Shown here: positions 35,755-50,675 of the stretch, one piece after another
How positions within the stretch are numbered: the stretch's first letter is position 1
How the letters are laid out: every line of letters starts with the position of its first letter
Source of the DNA: a bacterium
GTDB taxonomy: Bacteria > JAAXHH01
Length of the DNA stretch: 64,000 bases
Direction of reading: 5' to 3'
Assembly: GCA_965262815.1 (NCBI GenBank)
Contig: OZ253560.1
Span: 2,547,287 to 2,611,286 of the forward strand
The notes under the pieces: generated by a model
What the model saw: the letters and a program-made list of their open reading frames with translations, nothing else
Told to the model about the DNA's origin: nothing
Databases searched by the model: none
Program-made: the position numbers and the translations under genes

Positions 35755-36101
35755 GTGTGTTCTCGATCATAAACAACCAAGTTTGTTACTGCAATCACCA
35801 GTAAATTAGCGGTATTGACGATACCAAACCTAAATCCTACTGACTTGCTAGAAAGTTAAGGCATACTGTGAGTCCCACGATAAATCCAAATGACTTGGTG
35901 CAATGCACATTGCACGATGGTACCGTCAGAGAGGCATTTCAGTGACTAAACAGATCGTTAGAAAAGCAACTAAAAGTGGATTCTTACCCCTCAACACTTG
36001 ATCTCACTTGATAGTAACAAGTGGATCGTCGTTGAAGGTGCATTGATTGACGAATTCCTAACTCAAGGAATCAGGGAAGCATTTATAGAATGTATTCCTT
36101 A

Positions 36102-39100
36102 TTATGATCCTCCTAGCGACTGATATACCCATCCGGGACGTCTTAGCAAGTTGAAAGTATCCAATGTTGTCGGGTTAAAGTCACGACAACTTGCTATCAC
36201 TTCCTCTAGCAATTCTACGGGATGTCTTAAATTCCATAGGGGATGGACCACTAAGACCAGCTTGTTGCCTACTTCCAAACCCGGAAGTAATCCGAAGTCA
36301 CGTGGCCTCGCGGAGAAAGACGTACAAAATGTATCCCGGAGCCTAGCAGCGTGTTCGCACCATCCTTCCAAATCAGGAACGGCGAATACCCCGTTTACAC
36401 CACAGTCAAAGCTGTCAGAATGTAGGCAACGCAACAATGAAACTCCGAGTCTCCAATCCAGCAATCCGTGATACCCCATGTTCCGGTAGTTCCTAAGGCA
36501 ATTGTAGCAAGATGAATCGCAGACCGACCTGTGATCACGGTGTAAGACTGAACCAGCAAAGCTGTCGGACTCGGCATCGGAATTCGTTACCAATGCCAGC
36601 AAGTCTTCCCAATTATCGTAAATGTAATTCGTGAATCCAGCGCCGTTGGCCAAGTGATCGCTAATTACAATTTCGCCTACTTTTGTCCCGTCTCCTAACT
36701 CGACCTGCCTCACGTTACTAATGTCAAACTCGTCGGGATCAATGTCGAGTTCTTCGGCGGCAATAGCTTTGAGAATGAAAGCTGCGGAATAGTAAGCGGC
36801 TTTTATTCCGACTGCTCCTACCGGATCCATCCAAAGACCCGGACGGACTGACTCAGGCCTGATGCGCAACACATCTGTGGATTTAGGCGAAACAATAGCA
36901 ATGGATTCAGTCTCGGTGGTCGTTGTGAAGTTTAGTTGGTCGGCCTCTTGGAACCGATTATCTATCCATTGATTCTCCAACCTTCGCCCGGTACTCCCGC
37001 GTTGTGCTGTACCAACCGCGCCTTTAAACAGGCGTCCTAGCCTATCGTTTACCCGGTACACTCGTCCCGATTTGGAAAAAGAGATCGCGCTATTGGTTCC
37101 AACCGATGCCATACAAGGAACCCCGTCCGATTCAGCGACCGTAGAGGCCCCGGTAGGTAGAAACTCGTCGTCCTCAACAGCATCACTCCCCGGACCAAGG
37201 CTTGCACGGAAAGCCAACGGTACCGCGAATTGGAATGTTCGAAAAGCTGGGTCATTCTCGTTTCCACATCCGCACTTGGGACAGGACTCATCTTGCGGGT
37301 TGTCGTCATACGTAGCAGTATAATGGCACTGTCCGCAACTTGACATCCATCTCCGTGGGGACAATGGATCGTTTGTACTTGTGCACCATCGGTTCTCCCT
37401 TCTTAACAGAGGAGCGGTGAAACCAATTGCCTGGTATACACGCTTATCTTTAGTTCTCTGGGAGCCGGGCGCGAACTCTGTAATGGCTAGGTCAAGGTCC
37501 CTGTGGGTTGTAAGGGCGTCTGTGCTACGCAACCCATGGTAAAATAGCCTGACACGAGAAGGCATACCGTACATGGGTAGAACTGCGTATTCAGCTAACC
37601 TTTCTGCCAAGCCGTCGCCTGTGATTTCAGGATTGGCACACGCTTCCCCAATTTTGATGCAAAGTTCATTCCTCGCATAATTTACAATGTCGCTTTTTCG
37701 AATAGTGCCCGCCACACCTGTACACAAGGCATCTGCGATTGACGTGACATCCGTCGCAGAAGAAAGCCAATTTTTGACTGATTCTCTCCTGTATTGGTCA
37801 TCAATCCAACCGGCTGTCATCCCGAACTCGCCATGACTATCAGGTGGACGCGGGCTTTCCCACCAGGGAACTCCGGCGGCATGGAATGCTCGTCGTAAGC
37901 ATTCCTTTGCCATAAGCCTCTGTGCAATGTCTAGACGCCCCATCGATAGGAAAGGTACTGGCGGAGGATCGCCCGTAATTCGCTCGGGATGGTGATAGTA
38001 GAATTCGTCATGGCTTCGGCCCCGACAGATGGTGAGCACAGTCGCGAAGGGTTGTCCCCGCCGACCAGCGCGTCCTGATCGTTGCTGATAGTTAAAGCGC
38101 ATTGGTGGCATATTCCCTTGTACGACAGCTTGGAGACTGCCAATGTCAACGCCAACCTCCATAGTCGTGGTCACACTGAGCATATCGATTGCATCTACTT
38201 CTCGCACAAGCGGGTGGTACGGATCGTTATTAAGATCTACAGTAATGTCGCGGAACAGACGTTGTCGCTCTGGCTGATTATCCGTTTGGGCAGTAAGTTC
38301 CTCGGCATGCAGGCGTATCGGTTGCCGTAACTGCACCGCTTCCTTCGCGTAGTAGTTCTGCAAGTGCAGGTCACAACAAGTAGTGTTCGGATCACCCGGC
38401 AGTATATCCTGGCAGAATTGGCTAGTACAGATTCCTGGATTATATAAATGGGGGCGTCGGCATCTCGTGCAACGCCATACTGGATCCGTAGGGAGCGCGA
38501 CACGGACCAGCAGTCGGCGCGGATTGATTTTGAAATGCGTATGGCCACCGATAAAGCAAATTGCATCCCGTACTGTTTCCAATAAAGCGTCTTCACCAAC
38601 ACCGTGTACGTTCGCGCACTTTCTGACATAATTACGAATACCAGCCCGAGCGGTTGTCCAGTTCGGCCAGTCATCAATGGGGTAGGCGCCTGGATCTACT
38701 TGTGGGTAGCGATACAAATCCCCTAGCATTCTAATCGTGCCGTTGAGAATGTCCACAAGTTGGCCTTTAGCCAAGTCACATTCACCAGCTTTTTGCTCCA
38801 TTACCGAGTCCGGTAGGTCCGACTTGGCATAACCGAGGCCTGCCGACTCGAACCCGAAATACAGTCTAGAAAACAACACAGAGCAGATTTCACTGGTTAC
38901 TTTAGCACGCAGTTTCTCGCGTCCCCTTGTACTTCCAGATGGTGACAGATCAGGTTTCCAGCCACCGCCAGGACGAGAGAAATCGAACAGGGTCGTCCAT
39001 TTTTGCCAAGCATCATCATATTTAAACTCTTGAAACAGTACGTTTTGACCAGCTGGATTAACGCCGAGAGTCTTCAAACGTTGGATTAATGCCCCAGTTC

Positions 39101-41846
39101 CTCGTTCGGTGTTTTCGTCCTCAAAAAGTAAGCGCAGATGGACAGTGCGGCTCGCACCACGATCAGCTACTAGGGCTAGTTTCGCACGGGCATCTGCAAT
39201 GGTTTGTTCTGCCACCTCGCGCAATGCTTCAGGAAGGCTCGCCAGTGCGTTGCTATCGACAGTTTCTTGTTGTAAAAGTTCGCGAAAGTCGGATAGCAGA
39301 ACCTGTTGTATATTGGTGAGTTCCAAAGCTTCGCGGGAGGTAGGAGACCCAGTAGCTCGAAGTTTGGCTAACAAGGCTGGCTCCTCTATCGTAAATCTTC
39401 GCAATTCATCGTACATGGCCTCCCGCACTAAGTCCGAATAGTGCGACCTTTCTATCCCATTGGCGAGTTCTGCCGCATCCTGTCGACTGTCGGAGAAGAC
39501 GACTAGTTTCTTAGCATCTTCTGGCAGGAAATAGAACATTTCCTTGGAAAGAATCTGAGTGATACGACCAAAACCAGTGCGAAATCCCCGGATTGGAGAC
39601 TTTCGATACTGGCGGAATCTGTAATTCGCCGCGCACAACGGGCAAGTTGCGGGTAGGGCTCCTATTTCGCTCTCAGGCAAATTCGGAACTACATATGCGT
39701 AACCACGCACAGTACCCGTGGTGCCTAGCTTGACTTGCCCTGTAGCTGGGTCAAGGCTAGCAGCCATCCACCGAGCTTGGACTGTACTGCTACTGTTAAT
39801 GGGCTGTGGCCACTGACGTGAATCTGGGTCTAATTGCTGTCCACCGGATGGCCAGAAAACCCCGAAATCCCGGTAGGTTCGTCTGTCGACAAAGCGGGCT
39901 GATTGCCGATCTGGCAAACCCTCTATATCAGCATCAGTGATTAGAAGCTCCCAGCCACGATTTGCATCCAGTTCGTTCCTGCTACCTCCGAACATCGTCG
40001 TACCGCAAACTTCGCAGTAGAGTAGTTCCAATACCCGGTGGGATTCATCCAGATTATCGCACAGGATACGCGAGTTTTGAAAAAGTTTTCCGGAGGTACG
40101 ACCACCTCCCATTTCGGCAGAACTACAACCACATCCAGGTTGAGTGCAAGCCCAGAGGCCTTCGATATTTTTGAAGAACCAGTGTAGTCTGAATCTGGGC
40201 ATTCGTTCGCTGGCCCCACACAGCTGACGGGCGATTAGAAGGCCGCGGGTAGCCGACCGCACAACATCGTCTTCACAGTCGGTGCCGAACAAACGTTGTC
40301 CGAATTCACTCAAGCGAGTTGCTCTGGTTACGCCGTCTCTGGAACAAGCCGCCAGCATACGCGCACTCATCTGCAAATTTTCCACCTCCAGGCAATCTTC
40401 CAGTTTCCAGTCGCCTCCTTCCTGCACTTCGCCTGTTGAACTTAGAAATGCTGTCGCTACAGCTTTTGCATCTGGCTCCTTGTCCGCTGCGGTTTCTAGT
40501 TCTGCAATAGCAACAAAAGGCTCTACCTGAAGCTTACTCGACGTATCCCCGCCTGAAGTGTCCTCTGGATTGCCTGGAATTACCTGTAAACTAGTCCATT
40601 GGGAGCCAAAGAACTCGGATAGGTATCGTAGGCTATCGTCATCGTTTGGCTCCAACGACGCACTGGAACCAATAATGCGAAGTTTTGGGCTGTCTGGGTA
40701 GAGACCTAAGCGGAGCAGGAGTAACTTTAAGAGGTACGCGACTTCGGTTCCTGCTGTGCCGCGATGGAGATGTAGTTCGTCAATGATGAGATGGAAAACG
40801 CTGCCGTCTTTTTCCAGCCATTGCTTCGTTTTTTCGAAAATGCCGCTGTCTGCGTCTCGCATTAGCATCATACTGAGCATGCTAAAGTTCGTGACCAAGA
40901 TATCTGGTGGGTGGTCTTGCATATCCCATCGGCAGCGCATTTCTGCACCGTCCAGTCGTGGGAAGAAGTAACGGGCTTCCGTTTTCCCTGTATCGAAAAC
41001 GTGTTTTTCTGCCGCTATTGCGGCACCTTCGGCTTCCTTCAAGAGTGTTTTCAATCGCTCAATTCTCTGGCGGTCTGGTCTCTGTACGCCATTGGCGTTT
41101 GGTTGTAATAGCTCATGACCAGCTACTGGTGCATCTGAGTTATATCGTCCGAAGTAGAATCGATTTCCGTCGCGATTTCGGTCGAACCACTCCCGGACTC
41201 CAGGCGAGTCTAAGGCGGAGCGCAAACGGCTTAGCTGGTCTTCTACCAAAGCATTCATAGGATATACAATCAAACCGCGAATCGCGGCATCCCGGTTCTC
41301 ATTGCCACGCTGAGGGATTCTCAGACTTCTTTGAGCTATGTTTCCTGCAGGCCAACATTTATTGCGCCAGGCCTCATTACGCCACCAATCGTCTTGATGC
41401 GCCAGCCTTGGTTGCGGCTTGTCCCAGCCAGAGGATTCTTGGCACAGGTAGGCGAATAGCGGCAATAAGAATGCCTCGGTTTTTCCTGAGCCGGTTCCGG
41501 CTGTAACGACAGCGTTTGTCCCAGAAAGCACTTTGCTTAACATTTCGGCTTGATGACTATAAAGCTCGAAGTCGCCGATCAGCCCAAGAGACGTAAGCTC
41601 TTGGAAAGCAGTAATTCCCTCCGACCCCATACTAGGCAAATCCACCGCAGATAAATCCCTGATTTTCTTTCCTGAAGTCCGATACCTTGGAATGGGTTCT
41701 ATCCACGGTTCTTGAGAAATAGTACCGGGCTCCCTTAGTAATTTCTCGCGTTCCACCTCAAGACCCGGGTACTGGGTTCCAAATGCAGTTTTCACGTAAT
41801 CGATGTAGCTGTCGCGGACCTTATCAAAAGCATTTATGAAATCCAT
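36102..41846 (-). CDS. giant split DExH helicase with C-terminal DUF1998-type zinc-finger domain (DruE-like Druantia signature protein)
   Basis: 1914 aa. Helicase motif I TAGTGSGKT (~aa 117), II IIDELH (~aa 355), III GSSAS. After a ~750-aa insertion, motif V TTTMEVGVDIG and motif VI QRSGRAGRRG (~aa 1200-1230). Cys pairs CGQCHY…CPKCGC and the C-terminal CDSSCYNCLRNY…LLDWRLG resemble the DUF1998/MrfA zinc-finger domain. The start overlaps the upstream gene by 13 nt. Confidence 0.7.
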   Translation of the reverse strand: MDFINAFDKVRDSYIDYVKTAFGTQYPGLEVEREKLLREPGTISQEPWIEPIPRYRTSGKKIRDLSAVDLPSMGSEGITAFQELTSLGLIGDFELYSHQAEMLSKVLSGTNAVVTAGTGSGKTEAFLLPLFAYLCQESSGWDKPQPRLAHQDDWWRNEAWRNKCWPAGNIAQRSLRIPQRGNENRDAAIRGLIVYPMNALVEDQLSRLRSALDSPGVREWFDRNRDGNRFYFGRYNSDAPVAGHELLQPNANGVQRPDRQRIERLKTLLKEAEGAAIAAEKHVFDTGKTEARYFFPRLDGAEMRCRWDMQDHPPDILVTNFSMLSMMLMRDADSGIFEKTKQWLEKDGSVFHLIIDELHLHRGTAGTEVAYLLKLLLLRLGLYPDSPKLRIIGSSASLEPNDDDSLRYLSEFFGSQWTSLQVIPGNPEDTSGGDTSSKLQVEPFVAIAELETAADKEPDAKAVATAFLSSTGEVQEGGDWKLEDCLEVENLQMSARMLAACSRDGVTRATRLSEFGQRLFGTDCEDDVVRSATRGLLIARQLCGASERMPRFRLHWFFKNIEGLWACTQPGCGCSSAEMGGGRTSGKLFQNSRILCDNLDESHRVLELLYCEVCGTTMFGGSRNELDANRGWELLITDADIEGLPDRQSARFVDRRTYRDFGVFWPSGGQQLDPDSRQWPQPINSSSTVQARWMAASLDPATGQVKLGTTGTVRGYAYVVPNLPESEIGALPATCPLCAANYRFRQYRKSPIRGFRTGFGRITQILSKEMFYFLPEDAKKLVVFSDSRQDAAELANGIERSHYSDLVREAMYDELRRFTIEEPALLAKLRATGSPTSREALELTNIQQVLLSDFRELLQQETVDSNALASLPEALREVAEQTIADARAKLALVADRGASRTVHLRLLFEDENTERGTGALIQRLKTLGVNPAGQNVLFQEFKYDDAWQKWTTLFDFSRPGGGWKPDLSPSGSTRGREKLRAKVTSEICSVLFSRLYFGFESAGLGYAKSDLPDSVMEQKAGECDLAKGQLVDILNGTIRMLGDLYRYPQVDPGAYPIDDWPNWTTARAGIRNYVRKCANVHGVGEDALLETVRDAICFIGGHTHFKINPRRLLVRVALPTDPVWRCTRCRRPHLYNPGICTSQFCQDILPGDPNTTCCDLHLQNYYAKEAVQLRQPIRLHAEELTAQTDNQPERQRLFRDITVDLNNDPYHPLVREVDAIDMLSVTTTMEVGVDIGSLQAVVQGNMPPMRFNYQQRSGRAGRRGQPFATVLTICRGRSHDEFYYHHPERITGDPPPVPFLSMGRLDIAQRLMAKECLRRAFHAAGVPWWESPRPPDSHGEFGMTAGWIDDQYRRESVKNWLSSATDVTSIADALCTGVAGTIRKSDIVNYARNELCIKIGEACANPEITGDGLAERLAEYAVLPMYGMPSRVRLFYHGLRSTDALTTHRDLDLAITEFAPGSQRTKDKRVYQAIGFTAPLLRRENRWCTSTNDPLSPRRWMSSCGQCHYTATYDDNPQDESCPKCGCGNENDPAFRTFQFAVPLAFRASLGPGSDAVEDDEFLPTGASTVAESDGVPCMASVGTNSAISFSKSGRVYRVNDRLGRLFKGAVGTAQRGSTGRRLENQWIDNRFQEADQLNFTTTTETESIAIVSPKSTDVLRIRPESVRPGLWMDPVGAVGIKAAYYSAAFILKAIAAEELDIDPDEFDISNVRQVELGDGTKVGEIVISDHLANGAGFTNYIYDNWEDLLALVTNSDAESDSFAGSVLHRDHRSVCDSSCYNCLRNYRNMGYHGLLDWRLGVSLLRCLHSDSFDCGVNGVFAVPDLEGWCEHAARLRDTFCTSFSARPRDFGLLPGLEVGNKLVLVVHPLWNLRHPVELLEEVIASCRDFNPTTLDTFNLLRRPGWVYQSLGGS

Positions 41847-42832
41847 CGCTTTCCTTTCGCTTCGATGGGTTGTTGATTAAGTTTACTCGCTACCTCATTA
41901 AAGACACTAGGTGGTACGTCGTTATACACATAGGAACGTTGTGCTTCATTAGATGGCACTAGCCCTAGCACAGTTGAGCAATGTCCTCTGCACAGTCCAA
42001 AGGCTCTTGAGAATAAAGTAGGCAGAGGAGCACCGTATGGAACGCTAGCTCTCTTGATAGCCATATCGTATTGCAATACCCGGTGCGATGATAGGGCGAG
42101 GACAGCGTAACGTCCCCAGTCCAGTTCAACTTCTGCGGACTCACGATTCCGCCATAGGCGATAGTACCAGATGGATGTTACTGGGTTTTGGTACCTGCTT
42201 AACCGTAATTTTGAATCTATCCTGCTATTAGGTAGAAACTGCAATCTTTCCGTATCAAAATCCTGGCGACGCCAGTTCATCTCTGCTTCGTTTGACCACA
42301 CCAGACCTCGGCAATACTCTTGGAGTGAAGCAGACACTCGCGCCAATGAACGGGCAGGTGGGAAGTCGATAAAGCGGAGGTTAACACTGGCGGCAACATT
42401 ATGGATTTGAATGGAACTATCGGCACATAGTTCTATGCGTGTTGGCACGTATGGACACGATGCTAAATGTGGCCCCACGATGGTCTCAAAGCCACCTATA
42501 GTTGCTGCCTGTTGCAGGTTCTCAACACTCGCTGGAGACCTGGCTCCGCACAAAACTGCTCTGGCTACACCGCGACCTGGAAGTGCGGCTAGCACCGGGG
42601 GAGCGACGACGACCTTGATTTCATCCGAATCAAATTTCATGTCGATGTGACCGAGACAACTCAATGTGCGGAGAGCTTGCCACCGTGCGCTAGCGACAGG
42701 TTCATCAAATTTGGACTGCCCGTCTAATACCCCTCTCCTATGTACCTCCTCAAACCATCGCTTGACAATGGACCAAGGAACTTTACGCTTAGCAGAGAGT
42801 GCGAATAAGAAGATGTCACCACTGTTATACAC
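41834..42832 (-). CDS. hypothetical protein, DruG-like position in Druantia-type operon
   Basis: 332 aa with no recognisable motif. GTG start (verified: gtg tat aac agt ggt gac = MYNSGD) overlaps the upstream stop by 8 nt, and the stop overlaps the druE-like start, indicating translational coupling. Confidence 0.55.
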   Translation of the reverse strand: MYNSGDIFLFALSAKRKVPWSIVKRWFEEVHRRGVLDGQSKFDEPVASARWQALRTLSCLGHIDMKFDSDEIKVVVAPPVLAALPGRGVARAVLCGARSPASVENLQQAATIGGFETIVGPHLASCPYVPTRIELCADSSIQIHNVAASVNLRFIDFPPARSLARVSASLQEYCRGLVWSNEAEMNWRRQDFDTERLQFLPNSRIDSKLRLSRYQNPVTSIWYYRLWRNRESAEVELDWGRYAVLALSSHRVLQYDMAIKRASVPYGAPLPTLFSRAFGLCRGHCSTVLGLVPSNEAQRSYVYNDVPPSVFNEVASKLNQQPIEAKGKRWIS

Positions 42833-44873
42833 GTCTGGACAACTCTTGTATCTGATTCCACAACGAGCGTTCGTCCGGTTGTTCTGGCTGTAAGATGCGC
42901 TTGCGCCAGTGCCAAGTAACTTTCTTCCAGTCTTTCAATTTCCGACGTGTTGGGGTATCCAACGATCCAAGCGATATTGCCCCCAGCATTTCGCTAACAA
43001 AAACTGCTTTCCATTTCTTAGGTCGGATTTTTGTAATCACCCATGTTGGAATCCAATCGTTGGGGAAAGGCTCAGATGGCCAAGCAATGATTTGTCCGGG
43101 GTGCTGCCCGACCAGAAAACAACGCATCCTACACAGTTCGTATTCTAAATCCTCGAATACCTCCGCGGCTGAAGTTGTCGTTTCGACGATCTGGCCCTTG
43201 ATATATGCACCAGAGACAGATGTTTTATCACTATCAAATTGTGAGCTGATGGCGGAGGAATCTACGAAAATTTCGGGTTCTCCCGTAGGCAGGCTGTAGT
43301 CGCTTGTTAAAAATAGTGACTGCCGACACAGAACTAATTGGTCGGACCGCGCCTCTATGGTGATCCGGGACCCATTTGGAAGGTCACTTGGTAGAGTAAA
43401 AATACCGGCGGTAGCAGGGGATGATAGTAATACTTGATTGCAATAAACTTCAGTAGTCGGTGCCCCTCCGATTAACCGTACTGATGGAGGTGCGAAGAAA
43501 AAAAAGTTATTCCCATTGCCGCTACGGATTCCGCCTACCAACAGGAGTCGCAACCCCGATTGAAATGTCAGAATCGGAAACTCGTTTTTAACTGCCTCAT
43601 CGTCTATAGCGGTCTCGACGCTAGCAAATCGCCATGAATTCGGTAAACCCTGCACTATATCGAGACCATGAAACTCCCTGCATTGCGTAGTTGCCCATCG
43701 TTGCAAACGTGGCCAAGCATCCTCGGGGTAACTCAGGTAAAAAGGTTGTCCCAAGGGTAGAGTGGGTGTGTCAACAAGATCACTAATCCCTTCTGCCATA
43801 CCGCTGATGAATATCCTGACCGGATAGCCCTTAAGCCTCAACAGGTAATTGGGAGATTTCGACCGCATCGTTTTGCTGATACGCCAATCAAGCATGGATG
43901 CGTCAAAATGCTCTCCTGTGTTGTTGTTTTTTATTGGCAACGACCACCCATTCACGTCCTCATCGGCATGGAGTACATGATCTAGAGTAAGACCTGCTTC
44001 AGGAAACTCGTGATTTAACCTGCACCTGATAGATGATTTGGCAATTCCTGTAACCTGATCCAGCTCGATGCAAATCCGCAGTCCGCCGAGAGTTTGAGCC
44101 GATTGACCAAGGTTTATTTCTGACCCTGGCATCGTCCCATCCCAAGCCTCCAGTTCGTCATTGACAGCGTCAATTAACGCCCTGTGAAGTTCATCTTGAG
44201 GATTCTCCGCCATTAGGATAGTTCTGGTCCTCATAAGTCGTCTTGCGATATTACTACGCAACGCCATAGCGATTTCATCATCCGGGTGACTTGATGCCGG
44301 GTCTAAACCTGCTTTAAAGAAGACCCGTGGCAACACCTGTCTGTCTTGCTCTACTAGTATCGCTTGTGAAAGTGGATAACCTATGTGGACATGTCCGCCT
44401 ATTGAACGGGATTGGAAAATGCCTAGTTTACCTTGTCGGTCGAATACTGACCAGTTCTCCAGGTCATCCCAGAGTTCCCGCATTCGGTCGAACCAGCGCG
44501 GTGGACCACTTCTACCTTCATACATTAGTTGCGTCCATAGCCTGGGATAATAGGCGTGAGGTGCGAAATCTCCTTCAGCGCCGCTAGCGAGCACGAAAAA
44601 ACACAGATAGCCAACGTAGGGCGGGATATCTTGATTCCGGATCCTCCACCCAAGGAATTCATGGTAAGCTCGTTTACATATATGTTTTCCGTTCAGGTAT
44701 GGCGCCGATGGTTGCCCAGCGACTGCAGTACGGAAAGAACCAGCTTCCGGGATATCCCGACTTATCTCGTCGATAAGATCCTGGTTGACGTAAAGGTGTA
44801 CGTTATATCCCTCCATGTCGGGATTAAAGAACCAGGTAGCTAACTTATTGTTCCATTGACTATAGGCGTTCAT
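42825..44873 (-). CDS. hypothetical protein, DruF-like position in Druantia-type operon
   Basis: 682 aa with no recognisable motif. ATG at 44873..44871 verified. 27 nt downstream of the relic end of the glycosylase gene. Confidence 0.55.
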   Translation of the reverse strand: MNAYSQWNNKLATWFFNPDMEGYNVHLYVNQDLIDEISRDIPEAGSFRTAVAGQPSAPYLNGKHICKRAYHEFLGWRIRNQDIPPYVGYLCFFVLASGAEGDFAPHAYYPRLWTQLMYEGRSGPPRWFDRMRELWDDLENWSVFDRQGKLGIFQSRSIGGHVHIGYPLSQAILVEQDRQVLPRVFFKAGLDPASSHPDDEIAMALRSNIARRLMRTRTILMAENPQDELHRALIDAVNDELEAWDGTMPGSEINLGQSAQTLGGLRICIELDQVTGIAKSSIRCRLNHEFPEAGLTLDHVLHADEDVNGWSLPIKNNNTGEHFDASMLDWRISKTMRSKSPNYLLRLKGYPVRIFISGMAEGISDLVDTPTLPLGQPFYLSYPEDAWPRLQRWATTQCREFHGLDIVQGLPNSWRFASVETAIDDEAVKNEFPILTFQSGLRLLLVGGIRSGNGNNFFFFAPPSVRLIGGAPTTEVYCNQVLLSSPATAGIFTLPSDLPNGSRITIEARSDQLVLCRQSLFLTSDYSLPTGEPEIFVDSSAISSQFDSDKTSVSGAYIKGQIVETTTSAAEVFEDLEYELCRMRCFLVGQHPGQIIAWPSEPFPNDWIPTWVITKIRPKKWKAVFVSEMLGAISLGSLDTPTRRKLKDWKKVTWHWRKRILQPEQPDERSLWNQIQELSRRV

Positions 44874-44899
44874 GGTCGGTCATCCCGAATGTGTTGTAT

Positions 44900-45019
44900 T
44901 CATACAATCGGCCCTTGTTTGGCATACACACACTTTGCTGCAATGGGGCAATCGATACATAGAGGTGTCCGTGATTTGCAGATAAGGGCTACAAAGTCAA
45001 GCAATCCGTAATTATGCTC
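44900..45019 (-). pseudogene. 3' fragment of the IS-split HhH-GPD glycosylase gene ([4Fe-4S] loop)
   Basis: Reading the minus strand from the TSD copy at 45021 gives EHNYGLLDFVALICKSRTPLCIDCPIAAKCVYAKQGPIV*. C-X6-C-X2-C-X5-C is the EndoIII/MutY/Mig Fe-S cluster loop, in frame with the upstream part once the IS and one TSD copy are removed. Confidence 0.8.
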
Positions 45020-45062
45020 CTTGATGTTACCCCGTTTTCGTGGACGGTTTACGGTTTGGGAT

Positions 45063-45875
45063 TCAGGCAGTTTTCTTGAACCTCCTTTCGAAGTTCATGG
45101 GTGAGAGGTATCCAAGGGAAGAGTGTCTTCTCCGGGTGTTGTAGAAGCCCTCGATGTATTGGAACAGGGCGAGTCTGGCGTCGGCCCTGGTGGTAAAGCG
45201 CCTGCGATCGAGCAGTTCGCATTCCAGGCTGGCGAAGAAGCTCTCGCACAGCGCGTTGTCGTAGCAGTCGCCGACCGAACCCATTGAGGGTCTGACCCCG
45301 GCCTGTCTGCATCTTTTGCCGAAGGCCACCGAGGTGTACTGCGATCCCTGGTCGCTGTGGTGGATCACCGCGTGGGGTCTGCGCATTCCAAGGGCCATGT
45401 CGAGGGCGTCTGTGACCAGTTCGCTTCGCAGGTGGTTGGCCATGGACCAGCCGACGACGCGACGGCTGAAGGCGTCTATGACCACCGAGAGATAGAGGAA
45501 GCCCGCATGGGTAGGCACGTAAGTGATGTCGGCGACCCACAGCCGATCCCTGACAGGAGCGCTGAAGTCCCGGTTGACCAGGTCCGGCGCCTTCTTGCTT
45601 TCTTCGGATCGCCAGGTGGTGCGCACGGCTCTGCGGCGTGATACTCCACTGATAGCGGCCATGCGCATCAGGCGGGCAACGCGTTTTCGTCCTGCGCGTA
45701 TGCCCGACGCGCGCAGTTCGGCATGGATGCGCGGCGCGCCGTAGGTACCGTAGGAGCGTTGATGGATCGAGCGGATCCTGCTAAGAAGCATAGCATCCTC
45801 TCTGGTCCTCTTGGAGACCACCCGCCTGAGCCAGACGTAGTAGCCGCTGGGGGAGACATCCAGCAGACCGCACAT
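45063..45875 (-). CDS. IS3-family transposase OrfB (DDE integrase core)
   Basis: …YPIRRMCGLLDVSPSGYYVW…, DDE catalytic region (…HHSDQGSQYTS…) and C-terminal YNTRRRHSSLGYLSP. The frame stays open upstream in the -1 frame relative to orfA. Confidence 0.9.
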   Translation of the reverse strand: MCGLLDVSPSGYYVWLRRVVSKRTREDAMLLSRIRSIHQRSYGTYGAPRIHAELRASGIRAGRKRVARLMRMAAISGVSRRRAVRTTWRSEESKKAPDLVNRDFSAPVRDRLWVADITYVPTHAGFLYLSVVIDAFSRRVVGWSMANHLRSELVTDALDMALGMRRPHAVIHHSDQGSQYTSVAFGKRCRQAGVRPSMGSVGDCYDNALCESFFASLECELLDRRRFTTRADARLALFQYIEGFYNTRRRHSSLGYLSPMNFERRFKKTA

Positions 45876-45907
45876 CCGGCGAATAGGATAGGAGGCCTGG
45901 CTTGCCT

Positions 45908-46219
45908 TTATGAACGAGAAGACTCGGGTGGGGTCTCGGTCTCCCGGGCGAACCAGGCCGCGGCTTTTGCCAGGATCTCTCGATCCATCCTGAGCTGTCT
46001 GTTCTCACGGCGCAGACGACGCAGTTCGGCCCGTTCTTCGGTTCTCAGGCCGTCTTCACGCCTGCCTTGGTCCAGGTCGTCCTGTTTGACCCAGTTGCGG
46101 ATGGCTTGGGCGGTGGGCTCGAACTCTTTGGCCAGCGCTTCGGGACTACGGCCGGCGCGAACGAGATCGACCATCTGCTGGCGAAAGGCCGACGGATAGG
46201 GGGCACGGGATCTGGGCAT
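45908..46219 (-). CDS. IS3-family transposase OrfA (HTH)
   Basis: 103 aa with a helix-turn-helix and leucine-zipper-like RRLRRENRQLRMDREILAKAAAWFA. orfB is in the -1 frame. A-rich slippery stretch CAAAAG around 45964-45970. Confidence 0.85.
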   Translation of the reverse strand: MPRSRAPYPSAFRQQMVDLVRAGRSPEALAKEFEPTAQAIRNWVKQDDLDQGRREDGLRTEERAELRRLRRENRQLRMDREILAKAAAWFARETETPPESSRS

Positions 46220-46231
46220 GTCACGCTCCTT

Positions 46232-46849
46232 TCAAACACAAGAAGTTACATGTCCACTAAACCGGGTCAACTCCACCTTATAGTACTTTTTTGGTAGTAG
46301 TGCCCTTGCGAAGTCCCAGATGATCTCAGCTCGCCTTATATCCGTTGGTGGTTTTAATCCTGTAAGCCGAGAGATTGTACGCACTATACTAAGGTCCACC
46401 ACTGGTACACGCTGTCCAAAGGCAAAGCTAGCGACAGCATGCGCAGTATAGATACCTACGTACGGTAATTTGACTAAATCATCGAGTTGAGTTGGCAGCT
46501 CTCTGGTTTGGGTTAATGACGAAGCGACGTCGAGAAGAGCTCTGACTCTTTGTTTTCCAAACCCTAATACCGCAATCATTTCGAACAGTTCGTCCGGATC
46601 AGCGTTAGACAACTTGCCAGCATCACTGTACTGGCCTATCAGCATCGGCCACACCATGGCAACTTTGTCAGCATGGGTCTGCTTAAGCAAGATTTCCGCT
46701 ATTAGGATTCCGAAAGGGCTGTTTTTTTCAGCTCTCCAAGGGAATGGCCTACCTAAAGTGGAGTACATTTGGACAAAGAAATCTTCTGCTATACCCAGCC
46801 TTGATGGATCGTAAACTGCCGCTTCATTCTGATTGGTCATGTGGATCAT
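46232..46849 (-). pseudogene. HhH-GPD superfamily DNA glycosylase (Mig/EndoIII-like), 3' end truncated by the IS3 insertion
   Basis: HhH-GPD motif LPYVGIYTAHAVASFAFGQRVPVVDLSIVRTISRLTG, with Tyr at the EndoIII Lys120 position and the catalytic Asp retained. The last 13 codons plus the stop (46275..46232) are IS-derived. The native Fe-S loop is displaced to 44900-45019. Confidence 0.75.
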
Positions 46850-46876
46850 CTAGAAAATGCCCCGTTTATCCGTATG

Positions 46877-47962
46877 CTATGCGCGCACAGAAACAAACCC
46901 AAAAGCTTCTACTATGGTGTTTGCGATCCCCTCAGCAAGTGGTGGTGGCACAGCGTCAGAAACCAAACGGACTTGTTCTGTAAATGTTCCCTCTAGCTGG
47001 TACGAATGTGTGAAGCCTTGAAGCAACATGGCTTCATAGACTGACAGACGCCTATGACAGTTAGGATGGACATGAACTTCGTTATGCCCGTATGCAACGG
47101 TGTAGCTGGGAGCATCCCATGACAGGACCTTGAAACTCAGACCATTGCTGCTACCTGCCAACAGACTACCGTTTGTAAATCTCGGGGACCGTGGAACCAT
47201 CGCGACATGGTTAGGATGATGCGGAATGTTTTTTGGCTCGAGCTTCTTTGCACAAAACGTAGGTTCAGGAAGGTTCTTAATAGCATTCTCAATCGCAGGG
47301 GGCGGATGACAATTCCCATCTAGTAGTCGAAGTTCAGTTTCCGGATGACGATTTCTATTTACCCCAACAGCGATCAGCCTCTTGCGATGCTGCGGCACAC
47401 CAAATGTCCCAGCATCCAGAATATTACTCATAACTTCGAACCCGGCTTGCCTAACTTCTTCCTTGAATTCACAAAAAGCTGTCTTGTGCTTAACGTGAAT
47501 GAGGCCAGGTACGTTTTCGAATACGAAGAAACCGATATCATAACGCTTTGCAAACGCGTTAATGATGCTGGCGTAACTGTCCAGCAATTTGCGTCTAGGA
47601 TCGTTTTCAGCTTGGTGGACATTAGATGAAGAAAAGGCTTGGCACGGTGGTCCTCCGATTATCCCTATAGGTTCCAGACCTTCAGCACAGTCTTCCCACA
47701 AATCTAGGATGGTCGTTGGCTCTACCGCAGCCAGATCAATAGAGCTGACCATGGTATTGGGGTGGTTACGCTTATAGGTTGCGATGGCAGCACGGTCAAT
47801 ATCGATTGCTAGAACTGGATGGAAACCTACCTTTTCAAAACCATGATCTAGCCCTCCTGCGCCACAGAACAGACTCATTACGGGCCAGCGGCCAACGGAT
47901 TTGGGAGAATTAGCGGGTTTTATCGAGCTCTCGGCGTAGTCCAAGAGATTCTCCTTCGTCAT
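46877..47962 (-). CDS. DNA (cytosine-5)-methyltransferase (druM-like)
   Basis: Motif I FCGAGG, motif IV GGPPCQAFS, motif VI ENVPGL and motif VIII QHRKRLIAVG. Confidence 0.9.
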   Translation of the reverse strand: MTKENLLDYAESSIKPANSPKSVGRWPVMSLFCGAGGLDHGFEKVGFHPVLAIDIDRAAIATYKRNHPNTMVSSIDLAAVEPTTILDLWEDCAEGLEPIGIIGGPPCQAFSSSNVHQAENDPRRKLLDSYASIINAFAKRYDIGFFVFENVPGLIHVKHKTAFCEFKEEVRQAGFEVMSNILDAGTFGVPQHRKRLIAVGVNRNRHPETELRLLDGNCHPPPAIENAIKNLPEPTFCAKKLEPKNIPHHPNHVAMVPRSPRFTNGSLLAGSSNGLSFKVLSWDAPSYTVAYGHNEVHVHPNCHRRLSVYEAMLLQGFTHSYQLEGTFTEQVRLVSDAVPPPLAEGIANTIVEAFGFVSVRA

Positions 47963-48974
47963 TTTAAGGCGTTAATCTGATCTTGGCAATATGTCTACAA
48001 GTCCGAATTAGACGATCATTTCCAATCACTGTTTTTCTTAAAGCTCATCTAACGGCTGGGACAAGAGCTTCTACTTGTCGATATAGTGTATGCATTACAG
48101 CCTCGAAGAGAGAAGTATCATATACCATACGTCTGAGGTACTGTTCCCAAGTAACTCACACATCGCTAAAACTTGGATATGGCAGAACTGCCCGGTTCAG
48201 TGAATTGGACCCCACACTGTACACTTCTCATGCAACAACGAGTTGACCCCAGTTAAGTCCATATGGTCCCTGCACGTACCAACATCTTACCACAAGTCTT
48301 AGTAGTCGCACACACTTGCATAGATTCCATGGTGTATTTCGAGGACATCGTGCAGATAAACTATAGGCTGCCTCTTGAAGCAGTGAAGCCCACTCGACCA
48401 GAATACCCTGAGCAAGCGGGGAAGACGGCCGTGCATGACAGGTAAGCTCTCGACTACCACCAATCATTTGTCTCCGCCGTAGTATTCATGTAAGTGCGGT
48501 AGTCCATGGTCATCAAAATACTAACGTATGACAATTCTATAGAAACAATAGAGTTCAGGGATTCTCATCATGAGGTCGCGCACCCAGCACTACTTGCGAT
48601 ATTGACTTGCCAGAAAGTTGTTTGTAAAAAGCATTCGGGTAGGATTCAATATCTTCTCCCCAAGCCCCAGACGGGGTTATACGTGGTGTTACAAAGCAAC
48701 CGCAGTCGTTCCACGCTATGGACACACCACATCTTGGTAGATATAACAGATCATCGTATCCCGCAGTACTGTCCGAGTACCTGAGCCATTTACGATATCC
48801 TTCTCGCGTTTACGCCTCGGTTGCCCGGATCATTTTTTACCACCTGGTTCGTTCATTTACAGGCTTTTCGAATCTGCCGTCGTCGCAGTGTTCCTATTTC
48901 AGACGAGAGTATTACTGCCCGATGCCGACGGCACAACAAATAGGCTGAAAGGGAAGCTCTGGCGAGAAGGACAC

Positions 48975-50675
48975 CTACCGCCGTATATACAGATCCGTAA
49001 TCGTAGAGTTGTCGATGAAGAAGGGTTCCTGACCCATGGAGTCCTTTTGCCAGCCCGCCAGCCAGGGTTTGCGGAGCTGCAGGAAGTAGTCGTGGTACAG
49101 GAACACGCCGCCCACGTCTTCGACCAGGATCCGTTCCGCCTCGTTGTACATCTCGAATCGGCGTTCCTCGTCGGTTTCCCTCGCCGCCTCATCAATGAGC
49201 CGGTCGAACTCTGCGTTCATCCAGTCGTGACGCCCCGCTCCCACGGGCTGAGAGTGCCAGACCATGCCAAGGAGGTTGTGCGGATCGGGGAAATCGAACA
49301 TGAAGGGGATCATGCTGAAGTCGATCCGGTACTGGGCCATGGCTTCGCTGTAGACCCGGTTCTCCATGTTCCGTACGCCCACTTTAAGGCCCAGGTTGTT
49401 GGAAAGCATGCCCGATATGGCCTCGGCGGCCATGATCCGGTATGGATCGTTCCGCAGCCAGATATCCACGGACGGGAACCTCCTTCCGTTAGGGTATCCT
49501 GCCTCCGCCAACAGGCGCCTGGCCAGTTCTGGATCGAATCGCTGCACATCTTTCAACTTATCACCTGAATAACCTGGAAAACCCGGCGGAAGCATGGTGT
49601 ACGCGGGCAGGGCCGTACCCCGGAGCACGATATTGCAGAGTGCGTCCCGGTCGATAGCGTGGCTGATGGCCTGTCGCACCCTGTGGTCACTGAAAACGCC
49701 TTCGCGCGTCCGGAAGAAAAGGTAGATGGCATTGAAATCCATGTACTTGTGCAGTTCGGAACTCAGCTCAGGATCTCCCTCGACGCGGTTGAGATCCCGC
49801 ACGTCGATCTGCACCAGGTCCAGTTCGTCGTTCTCGTAGGATAGGAGCCCGGTGTTGCCCTGGTTCTTGAAGATGGAGTGGATCTCCGATAAATAACCCT
49901 TCACCGGCCCGTTGTAAAATGTGTCAAGGGATAGCGTGAGGCGCTCGCCGATACGCCAGCCTTCGACCTTGTAGGAGGAGTTACTGACGACGTTTTCGTC
50001 GCTCGCCCAGCGAGGACCGAATCTCTCCACCTGCCAGCGCGGTACGGGAATCGACGTGAAAAACGCCGCTATCATCGGCAGGTAGGGGCAGGGGCCCTCG
50101 GTCTCGATCACGAGGGTCATGTCATCCTCCGCGTACACGCCCACCGAGCTAGGATCGGTGTTCTGCCCCGTGTTGAACGCCCGGGCGCCCTTGATATTGT
50201 AGTAGAAAAAGGCGTACCCGCTGCCCGATGCGGGGTCCAGCATGCGCTTGTAGCTGTATTCGAAATCGTGGGCCGTCACCGGCCGGCCGTCGCTCCACCG
50301 GGCGCCGGACCGCATCTGAAAAGTCCAGCGGGTCTGGTCCTCCGACGAAGTCCATTCGGAAGCGGCGCCGGGGATCACGCGGTTGTTGTGGTCCAGCATG
50401 GTCAGACGTTCGAAGAGGAAGACGATGCCGCCCACCTCGTAGATGGCCATGCCGATGTCCAGATTGGTCGGTTCGTCGTTCAGAAAACGGAAAACCTGGC
50501 GGTCCGGGGGCGCCGCATCCGCGGGCATCGCCTTGCCGACTGCGTTGCGCACCTGCGCTTCCGGGTGACTTGTAAACACGGAGAGGCCGCAGATCGTCAG
50601 AAGCAGCGCAGTTACAAGTATGGCAGCATATTTCATGTGTGTTACCACCGCGTTATGAGTATTCAGCCTCATCAT
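48975..50675 (-). CDS. ABC transporter substrate-binding protein, family 5 (paralogue of 24315-26102)
   Basis: 566 aa with a signal peptide (likely start at Met14, MKYAAILVTALLL). Shares blocks with the other SBP (…WSDGRPVTAHDFE… / …NYDFPDPH…). No transporter partners. Confidence 0.7.
   Translation of the reverse strand: MMRLNTHNAVVTHMKYAAILVTALLLTICGLSVFTSHPEAQVRNAVGKAMPADAAPPDRQVFRFLNDEPTNLDIGMAIYEVGGIVFLFERLTMLDHNNRVIPGAASEWTSSEDQTRWTFQMRSGARWSDGRPVTAHDFEYSYKRMLDPASGSGYAFFYYNIKGARAFNTGQNTDPSSVGVYAEDDMTLVIETEGPCPYLPMIAAFFTSIPVPRWQVERFGPRWASDENVVSNSSYKVEGWRIGERLTLSLDTFYNGPVKGYLSEIHSIFKNQGNTGLLSYENDELDLVQIDVRDLNRVEGDPELSSELHKYMDFNAIYLFFRTREGVFSDHRVRQAISHAIDRDALCNIVLRGTALPAYTMLPPGFPGYSGDKLKDVQRFDPELARRLLAEAGYPNGRRFPSVDIWLRNDPYRIMAAEAISGMLSNNLGLKVGVRNMENRVYSEAMAQYRIDFSMIPFMFDFPDPHNLLGMVWHSQPVGAGRHDWMNAEFDRLIDEAARETDEERRFEMYNEAERILVEDVGGVFLYHDYFLQLRKPWLAGWQKDSMGQEPFFIDNSTITDLYIRR

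Follow-up and report, generated by a model that had tools for sequence, protein, structure and literature searches.

The window analysed here is a stretch of 64,000 nucleotides of the bacterial contig OZ253560.1, in which an insertion sequence (IS) of the IS3 family interrupts a gene for a Mig-like DNA glycosylase. The gene is the second of five in an operon that resembles the Druantia defence systems. It lies in two parts on either side of the IS, and a 3-bp direct repeat marks the junctions:

46276..46849, minus strand: 5′ part of the glycosylase gene, residues 1-191, with the HhH motif, Y134 and the catalytic D152
45022..46275, minus strand (same direction as the operon): IS3-family insertion sequence, 1254 bp, with TG…CA ends and a GC content that contrasts with its flanks
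44900..45021, minus strand: 3′ part of the glycosylase gene, residues 192-230, with the EHNYGLLDF helix, the C205-X6-C212-X2-C215-X5-C221 loop and the stop codon
45019..45021: target-site duplication copy 1, CCT on the plus strand and AGG on the gene strand
46276..46278: target-site duplication copy 2, CCT

In the present allele, the 5′ open reading frame gains 14 codons from the IS before it reaches a stop at 46232, giving a product of 205 residues (P0001). Excision of the IS together with one CCT yields a continuous open reading frame of 230 residues, in which …LPKKYYK is followed directly by EHNYGLLDFVALICKSRTPLCIDCPIAAKCVYAKQGPIV and the stop codon. The insertion point is between K191 and E192, and the best-conserved motif of the family follows immediately. 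The reconstructed protein matches the Pfam HhH-GPD model (PF00730) with 46.1 bits against a gathering cut-off of 26.2. Its best match among the solved structures is Mig.MthI (1KEA, E 6e-26), aligned over residues 27-225 and ungapped across the junction, followed by MutY (best E 6e-21, catalytic domains about 1e-20) and EndoIII (9e-16). An alignment of 25 homologues showed that E52, Y134, D152, E192-H-N-Y-G196, D199 and the four cysteines C205, C212, C215 and C221 are invariant. The four cluster cysteines align with those of Mig and MutY, and D152 aligns with D144 of Mig. Identification as MutY was rejected on the score against the NCBIfam mutY model (135 bits vs. a cut-off of 286.5), the absence of the MutY C-terminal domain and the better score of Mig. 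Identification as EndoIII was likewise rejected (NCBIfam nth, 67 bits vs. a cut-off of 212), Mig again scoring best. In PADLOC, the glycosylase matches a REBASE-derived model named 'Type II nicking endonuclease' (PDLC03398, 97 bits), a label that apparently covers a class of methylase repair partners.

The fragment left by the insertion, 191 residues with a 14-residue tail encoded by the IS, is almost certainly inactive, because it lacks both the EHNYGLLDF helix of the base pocket and all four cysteines of the [4Fe-4S] cluster. An earlier note on this DNA, made from the sequence alone, had proposed that excision restores an EndoIII/Mig-like protein of about 231 residues with a C-X6-C-X2-C-X5-C cluster, and that the IS separates the [4Fe-4S] loop. 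The fold and the cluster are as proposed, with Mig as the best match, and the length is corrected to 230 residues. The separation is confirmed and takes in the EHNYGLLDF helix as well as the four cysteines, all of which are cut from the catalytic domain. The alignment of the reconstructed frame to Mig.MthI, MutY and EndoIII is continuous across the junction.

Both the occupied and the empty forms of the site were recovered from other assemblies. A 138.7-kb contig (L001, ENA ERZ25068813) is 100% identical to the window across 12.4 kb, IS included, and a 3.76-Mb NCBI contig encodes the same truncated glycosylase. Uninterrupted alleles, which the earlier note had suggested looking for in related genomes, are present in two contigs at 99.4-99.9% nucleotide identity. 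L008 (ERZ25069191) shows 99.35% identity upstream and 99.89% downstream of the insertion point and lacks exactly 1257 bp. Its empty site reads …AAGTACTATAAGGAGCATAAT… with one AGG only, and its protein fragment P0003 crosses the insertion junction at 100% identity. The site in L042 (ERZ25071132) is also empty with a single AGG, and this contig encodes an intact glycosylase of 227 residues (P0121) that differs at one residue. L002 is a more distant locus in synteny with the window: its chromosomal neighbours beyond the methylase are the same, and its glycosylase, 242 residues long and 79% identical in protein, is uninterrupted. Judging by their closely spaced ENA accession numbers, the metagenome assemblies that contain the alleles with and without the IS seem to belong to one project.

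The window and L008 differ at 15 positions in 2.1 kb, mostly by transversions and indels. These differences look like low-coverage read errors and are unusable for a test of C-to-T change. L008 has a 2-bp deletion in the GGPPCQ catalytic motif of the methylase (about 495-500, window about 47650), and a CCC run in its glycosylase gene is 1 bp short (about 1473, window 46677). Both are probably read errors at 2x coverage, the alternative being a real decay of both genes. In L042 (1841-2475, ctg607400_4x_l), a 157-bp segment comprising the 3′ end of the glycosylase gene and the start of druF (window 45021 to 44866) occurs twice, and the two copies flank a fragment of about 320 bp from the 3′ end of a different rve-type transposase gene. 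Either a further IS-related rearrangement has occurred independently at this spot, or the contig was mis-assembled at low coverage.

The anatomy of the IS was resolved into the following parts:

46246..46275, minus strand: left inverted repeat (IRL), upstream of orfA, TGGAGTTGACCCGGTTTAGTGGAC…, recognized by its match to the other end
45022..45051, plus strand: right inverted repeat (IRR), TGATGTTACCCCGTTTTCGTGGAC…
45908..46219, minus strand: orfA, 103 residues, with a match to HTH_Tnp_1 and an AAGGAG ribosome-binding site 7 nt upstream
45964..45968, minus strand: A AAA G slippery motif, in the phase required for a predicted -1 frameshift from orfA to orfB
45063..45875, minus strand: orfB, 270 residues as delimited by its ATG, with an rve integrase core and a DD(35)E triad

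The GC content of the IS is 0.61, compared with 0.48 in its flanks and 0.58 in the whole window. The termini are TG at 45022-23 and CA at 46274-75, and the terminal inverted repeats are imperfect, with matches at 18 of the first 24 and 20 of the first 30 positions. A TTGACC hexamer within IRL is a possible -35 element of the transposase promoter. OrfB matches the Pfam models HTH_21, rve (93 bits), rve_2 and rve_3 and scores 336 bits against the NCBIfam model transpos_IS3. The triad was read from its translation as WVADITY…HSDQGSQY…CESFF, with 35 residues between the last two blocks. The orfB frame is in the -1 phase relative to orfA (start offset 344 nt) and stays open well 5′ of its ATG. A stem at 45880-45960, about 6 nt downstream of the slip site, has a folding energy of -35.6 kcal/mol (z -2.96 vs. 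shuffles). When the two frames are fused in silico at A AAA G, the resulting OrfAB of 385 residues matches positions 2-369 of the 369 in NF033516 with 406 bits, the cut-off of that model being 160 bits.

Members of the IS3 family carry orfA and orfB in phases 0 and -1 with a frameshift signal of the A AAA G or A AAA AAG type and a downstream structure, a DD(35)E transposase, imperfect TG…CA inverted repeats and a target duplication of 3-5 bp, within a length of about 1.2-1.55 kb. Every sequence-visible defining feature of the family is present in the 1254-bp element. The claims of the earlier note on the IS itself thus stand. These were its membership of the IS3 family (now carried by family profiles as well as structural features), its TG…CA termini with imperfect repeats of about 24 bp and a CCT/CCT duplication, and its intact orfAB frameshift arrangement. 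The note had also taken the insertion to be recent, which agrees with the distribution described next.

The window contains no second copy or partner of the IS: a 27-mer of the IRL end, searched with up to 3 mismatches, occurs once in the window, and it is multicopy in related metagenome-assembled genomes (MAGs). Proteins identical to OrfA occur on 55 contigs, and proteins identical to OrfB on 22. Copies of the 1254 bp with 100% identity are located at four other sites, two of which show 3-bp duplications. Eight near-identical full-length copies were found elsewhere, half of them (4/8, a count that includes the own-locus copy in L049) with 3-bp duplications. The related MAGs, some of them labelled Latescibacterota, contribute 26 further full-length copies at 88-91% identity, with 3-bp duplications in 13, and a more diverged copy in L048 also has a 3-bp duplication. 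The 26 MAG copies and the eight near-identical ones all align from base 1 to base 1254 and hence share the same ends. The insertion in the glycosylase gene is real, recent and polymorphic; its recency follows from the empty-site alleles at more than 99% identity together with the identical IS copies elsewhere. Recovery of both alleles, occupied and empty, and of identical donor copies makes this a clean and datable case of polymorphism in a lineage that is uncultured.

Several IS copies with at least 99.8% identity have distinctive neighbours. One is located between a gene for an MNT-type nucleotidyltransferase and a gene for a HepT-like toxin (L050), one adjoins a helicase with DUF4011, AAA_11, AAA_12 and DUF3320 domains (L051), one adjoins an AAA_15/AAA_21 ATPase and HNH pair (L052), and two lie on either side of a VapE-like gene (L056/L057). 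This IS seems often to land in defence or mobile islands.

The interrupted gene belongs to a co-directional operon, the other parts of which, with the boundaries of the surrounding island, are as follows:

47989-47961, minus strand: promoter-like site upstream of druM, from a consensus promoter scan
46877..47962, minus strand: C5 cytosine DNA methyltransferase (DruM-like), first gene of the operon; Pfam DNA_methylase 179 bits, PADLOC DruM2 248 bits
42825..44873, minus strand: DruF homologue, 682 residues; PADLOC DruF4 521 bits, DruF2 455 bits
41834..42832, minus strand: DruL-like protein, 332 residues; PADLOC DruL4 201 bits
36102..41846, minus strand: DruE helicase, 1914 residues, with DEAD and Helicase_C domains; PADLOC DruE2 1794 bits, DruE4 1751 bits
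34456-35754: EPSP synthase, island boundary
48975-50675: SBP_bac_5 protein, island boundary

The five genes are tightly spaced or overlapping, with the glycosylase gene in second place and the start of druF 26 nt past the glycosylase stop codon. The genes druM, druF and druE and the gene for the 332-residue protein are all full length. The earlier note had named the last of these druG. No PADLOC DruG model matches the protein, and the name was rejected in favour of the DruL4 match. The GC content of the island (36000-49000) is 0.47-0.53, compared with 0.56-0.63 in the flanking housekeeping genes. The GC content of the IS resembles that of the host genome and not that of the island, a composition that fits a resident IS having hit a horizontally acquired island.

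Comparisons with other loci showed that the same order of a methylase, a glycosylase and proteins of about 680, 330 and 1910 residues recurs in L002/L003, L004-L006, L043, L044/L045 and L047. In all, the order methylase-glycosylase-DruF-DruL-DruE is found in six independent genomic contexts, with glycosylase identities down to about 56%. A C5-methylase gene is directly upstream of the glycosylase gene in the window and in all eight related gene neighbourhoods examined. In L046 (7932-13135), a methylase and HhH-GPD pair, whose glycosylase is 52% identical, is followed by HATPase_c_3 and PP_RS20740-family genes and then by a set comprising DUF6361 and a helicase in place of DruF, DruL and DruE. 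Because the pair in L046 sits beside non-Druantia genes, its gene content suggests that methylase and glycosylase form a portable two-gene module joined to different putative defence effectors. In another genome of 4.25 Mb with the same cassette (L044, 12750-18369), DruE is split into parts of 345 and 1270 residues with an opposite-strand open reading frame of 241 residues between them, which may be another disruption of the same type of system in a different lineage. The insertion itself is an ordinary, textbook gene disruption, and the five-gene cassette is the part with some novelty.

The interrupted structure would be misleading if it had been produced by the assembly of a multicopy repeat. 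The element is indeed multicopy, the source is a MAG and the related contigs have low coverage. However, the flanks are the contiguous halves of one gene and the 3-bp duplication abuts the IS termini exactly, the 138.7-kb ENA contig and the 3.76-Mb NCBI contig both show the interrupted gene, and a natural contig (L008) without exactly these 1257 bp also speaks against a chance pattern. Since a mis-join at a repeat would not create an exact duplication at the exact ends of the IS, an artefact is effectively excluded. It is rather unlikely that the main effect of the insertion is on the expression of the defence genes, through strong polarity on druF-druL-druE or through their activation. Such an effect would be in keeping with the tight spacing of the five genes, the single promoter-like site upstream of druM and the presence of a 1.25-kb insert with its own translation signals between this promoter and druF, and the TTGACC of IRL could drive co-directional transcription. 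However, a consensus scan of 44700-48600 found neither a terminator-like hairpin on the operon strand nor a sigma-70-like outward promoter inside 45022-46275, and the only good promoter-like site was that upstream of druM; the totals of the scan are no higher than those of shuffles (5 promoters vs. 3.7 and 3 terminators vs. 3.3), so that it is weak evidence either way. Moreover, the inserted RNA should be mostly translatable as orfA and orfB, which argues against strong Rho-dependent polarity, and druF is provided with a separate start region beyond the former stop of the glycosylase gene. The IS reads in the same direction as the operon and shows nothing like a terminator on that strand, so that transcription starting at the druM promoter, or at a promoter of the IS itself, could plausibly continue into druF, druL and druE. 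The earlier note had expected the defence locus to be in the course of inactivation or rewiring. This arrangement gives that view no support: the other four genes are full length, and the interrupted one seems to be an accessory to the methylase, serving repair, and not an effector of defence.

What has very probably happened at this locus is that a recent IS3 insertion knocked out the Mig-like repair partner of the neighbouring methylase. In this course of events, an active multicopy IS3-family element of 1254 bp would have transposed into codon 191/192, duplicating the 3-bp target CCT. Where 5-methylcytosine made by the methylase deaminates and leaves a T:G mismatch, the glycosylase would normally excise the T (or U), and its loss would raise the C-to-T rate at methylated sites rather than abolish phage defence. 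Several points weigh against this interpretation. The empty-site contigs are low-coverage long-read assemblies (2x and 4x by their names) with small indels elsewhere in the locus. The protein is Mig-like, and its substrate specificity is read from that likeness; Y195 and Q57, which occupy the positions of L187 and R47 of Mig.MthI, suggest that the specificity could differ from that of Mig. In addition, the glycosylase gene keeps a fixed place between druM and druF in six contexts even at about 56% identity. The last of these, together with an invariant Tyr195 at a specificity position unlike both Mig and MutY, would also be expected if the glycosylase were an integral part of a Druantia variant, either sensing the methylation state or creating abasic sites in invader DNA that is unmethylated or modified, with the IS disabling or re-tuning defence. 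Restriction by glycosylases is known from a different fold (PMC10273834). However, the nearest relative of the present protein among the solved structures serves T:G repair and has its gene next to that of a C5-methylase (PMC2714593), the same methylase-glycosylase pair is found beside unrelated genes in L046, and type IV Druantia (DruF-DruL-DruE) exists without a methylase (PMC8565338), so that the core is evidently independent of both genes. An integral role is accordingly improbable, and there is an equally slight chance that the cassette is an undescribed Druantia subtype with the glycosylase as a base-excision effector or methylation-state sensor. If it were such a subtype, strains with and without the IS would form a natural pair of knock-out and wild type.

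Comparison of the IS with IS3, IS911, IS150 and IS407 showed that the 1254-bp size, the TG…CA repeats, the 3-bp duplication, the orfA/orfB arrangement and the slip site with its stem are in common. The closest plasmid-borne relatives, IS3-family transposases of Azospirillum, Ralstonia and Cupriavidus, have only 62-66% identity in protein sequence, and the IS probably has no name as yet and comes from an uncultured lineage. The cassette, in turn, combines components of two Druantia types. In the definitions of Doron 2018 and PADLOC (PMC8565338), type II requires DruG, and type IV consists of DruF-DruL-DruE without DruM or DruG. The matches to DruM, DruF and DruE of type II (DruM-DruF-DruG-DruE) are strong here, but a match to DruG is absent; DruF4, DruL4 and DruE4 of type IV are matched, but a conserved DruM-like methylase is present. 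The locus therefore falls under neither definition, mixing the DruM-like protein of type II with the DruL of type IV and adding a conserved glycosylase gene. No report of a glycosylase in Druantia type II or IV was found in the literature searched, the coverage of which is incomplete and so no proof of novelty. Nor did any paper found there describe the conserved five-gene cassette. A conserved Mig-like glycosylase in a cassette of the II/IV kind falls outside the current type definitions.

The closest likeness of the glycosylase itself is to Mig.MthI of the Methanothermobacter plasmid pFV1, a T:G mismatch repair enzyme encoded beside the C5-methylase M.MthTI and owing its specificity to Ala50, Leu187 and Tyr126 (PMC2714593). 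Both proteins are single-domain, of about 220-230 residues and without the MutY C-terminal domain, and both genes directly adjoin that of a C5 cytosine methylase. E52, F36, A60, Y134 and D152 are the equivalents of E42, F27, A50, Y126 and D144 of Mig.MthI, and the four-cysteine loop is the same. The differences are that L187 is replaced by Y195, an invariant Tyr in the present family where MutY has Gln (Q182), that R47 is replaced by Q57, as in MutY, and that the present host is bacterial and the gene is inside a Druantia-like operon.

A second parallel is the Dcm-Vsr pair of E. coli, in which the loss of vsr raises C-to-T mutation at methylated sites. The shared logic is that the gene of a C5-methylase is followed by a gene whose product corrects the T:G mismatches from deamination of 5-methylcytosine. 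However, Vsr is a nicking endonuclease of the PD-(D/E)xK type and the present protein is a glycosylase, and the two are unrelated in fold and chemistry. By this analogy, and because of its homology to Mig.MthI, its conserved adjacency to a methylase gene and the occurrence of the pair beside unrelated genes, the most likely role of the glycosylase is to partner the methylase in T:G repair, as Vsr does with Dcm, and not to act as a defence effector. If it serves DruM in the way that Vsr serves Dcm, the lineage with the IS would accumulate C-to-T changes at DruM sites, a cost of carrying a methylating defence.

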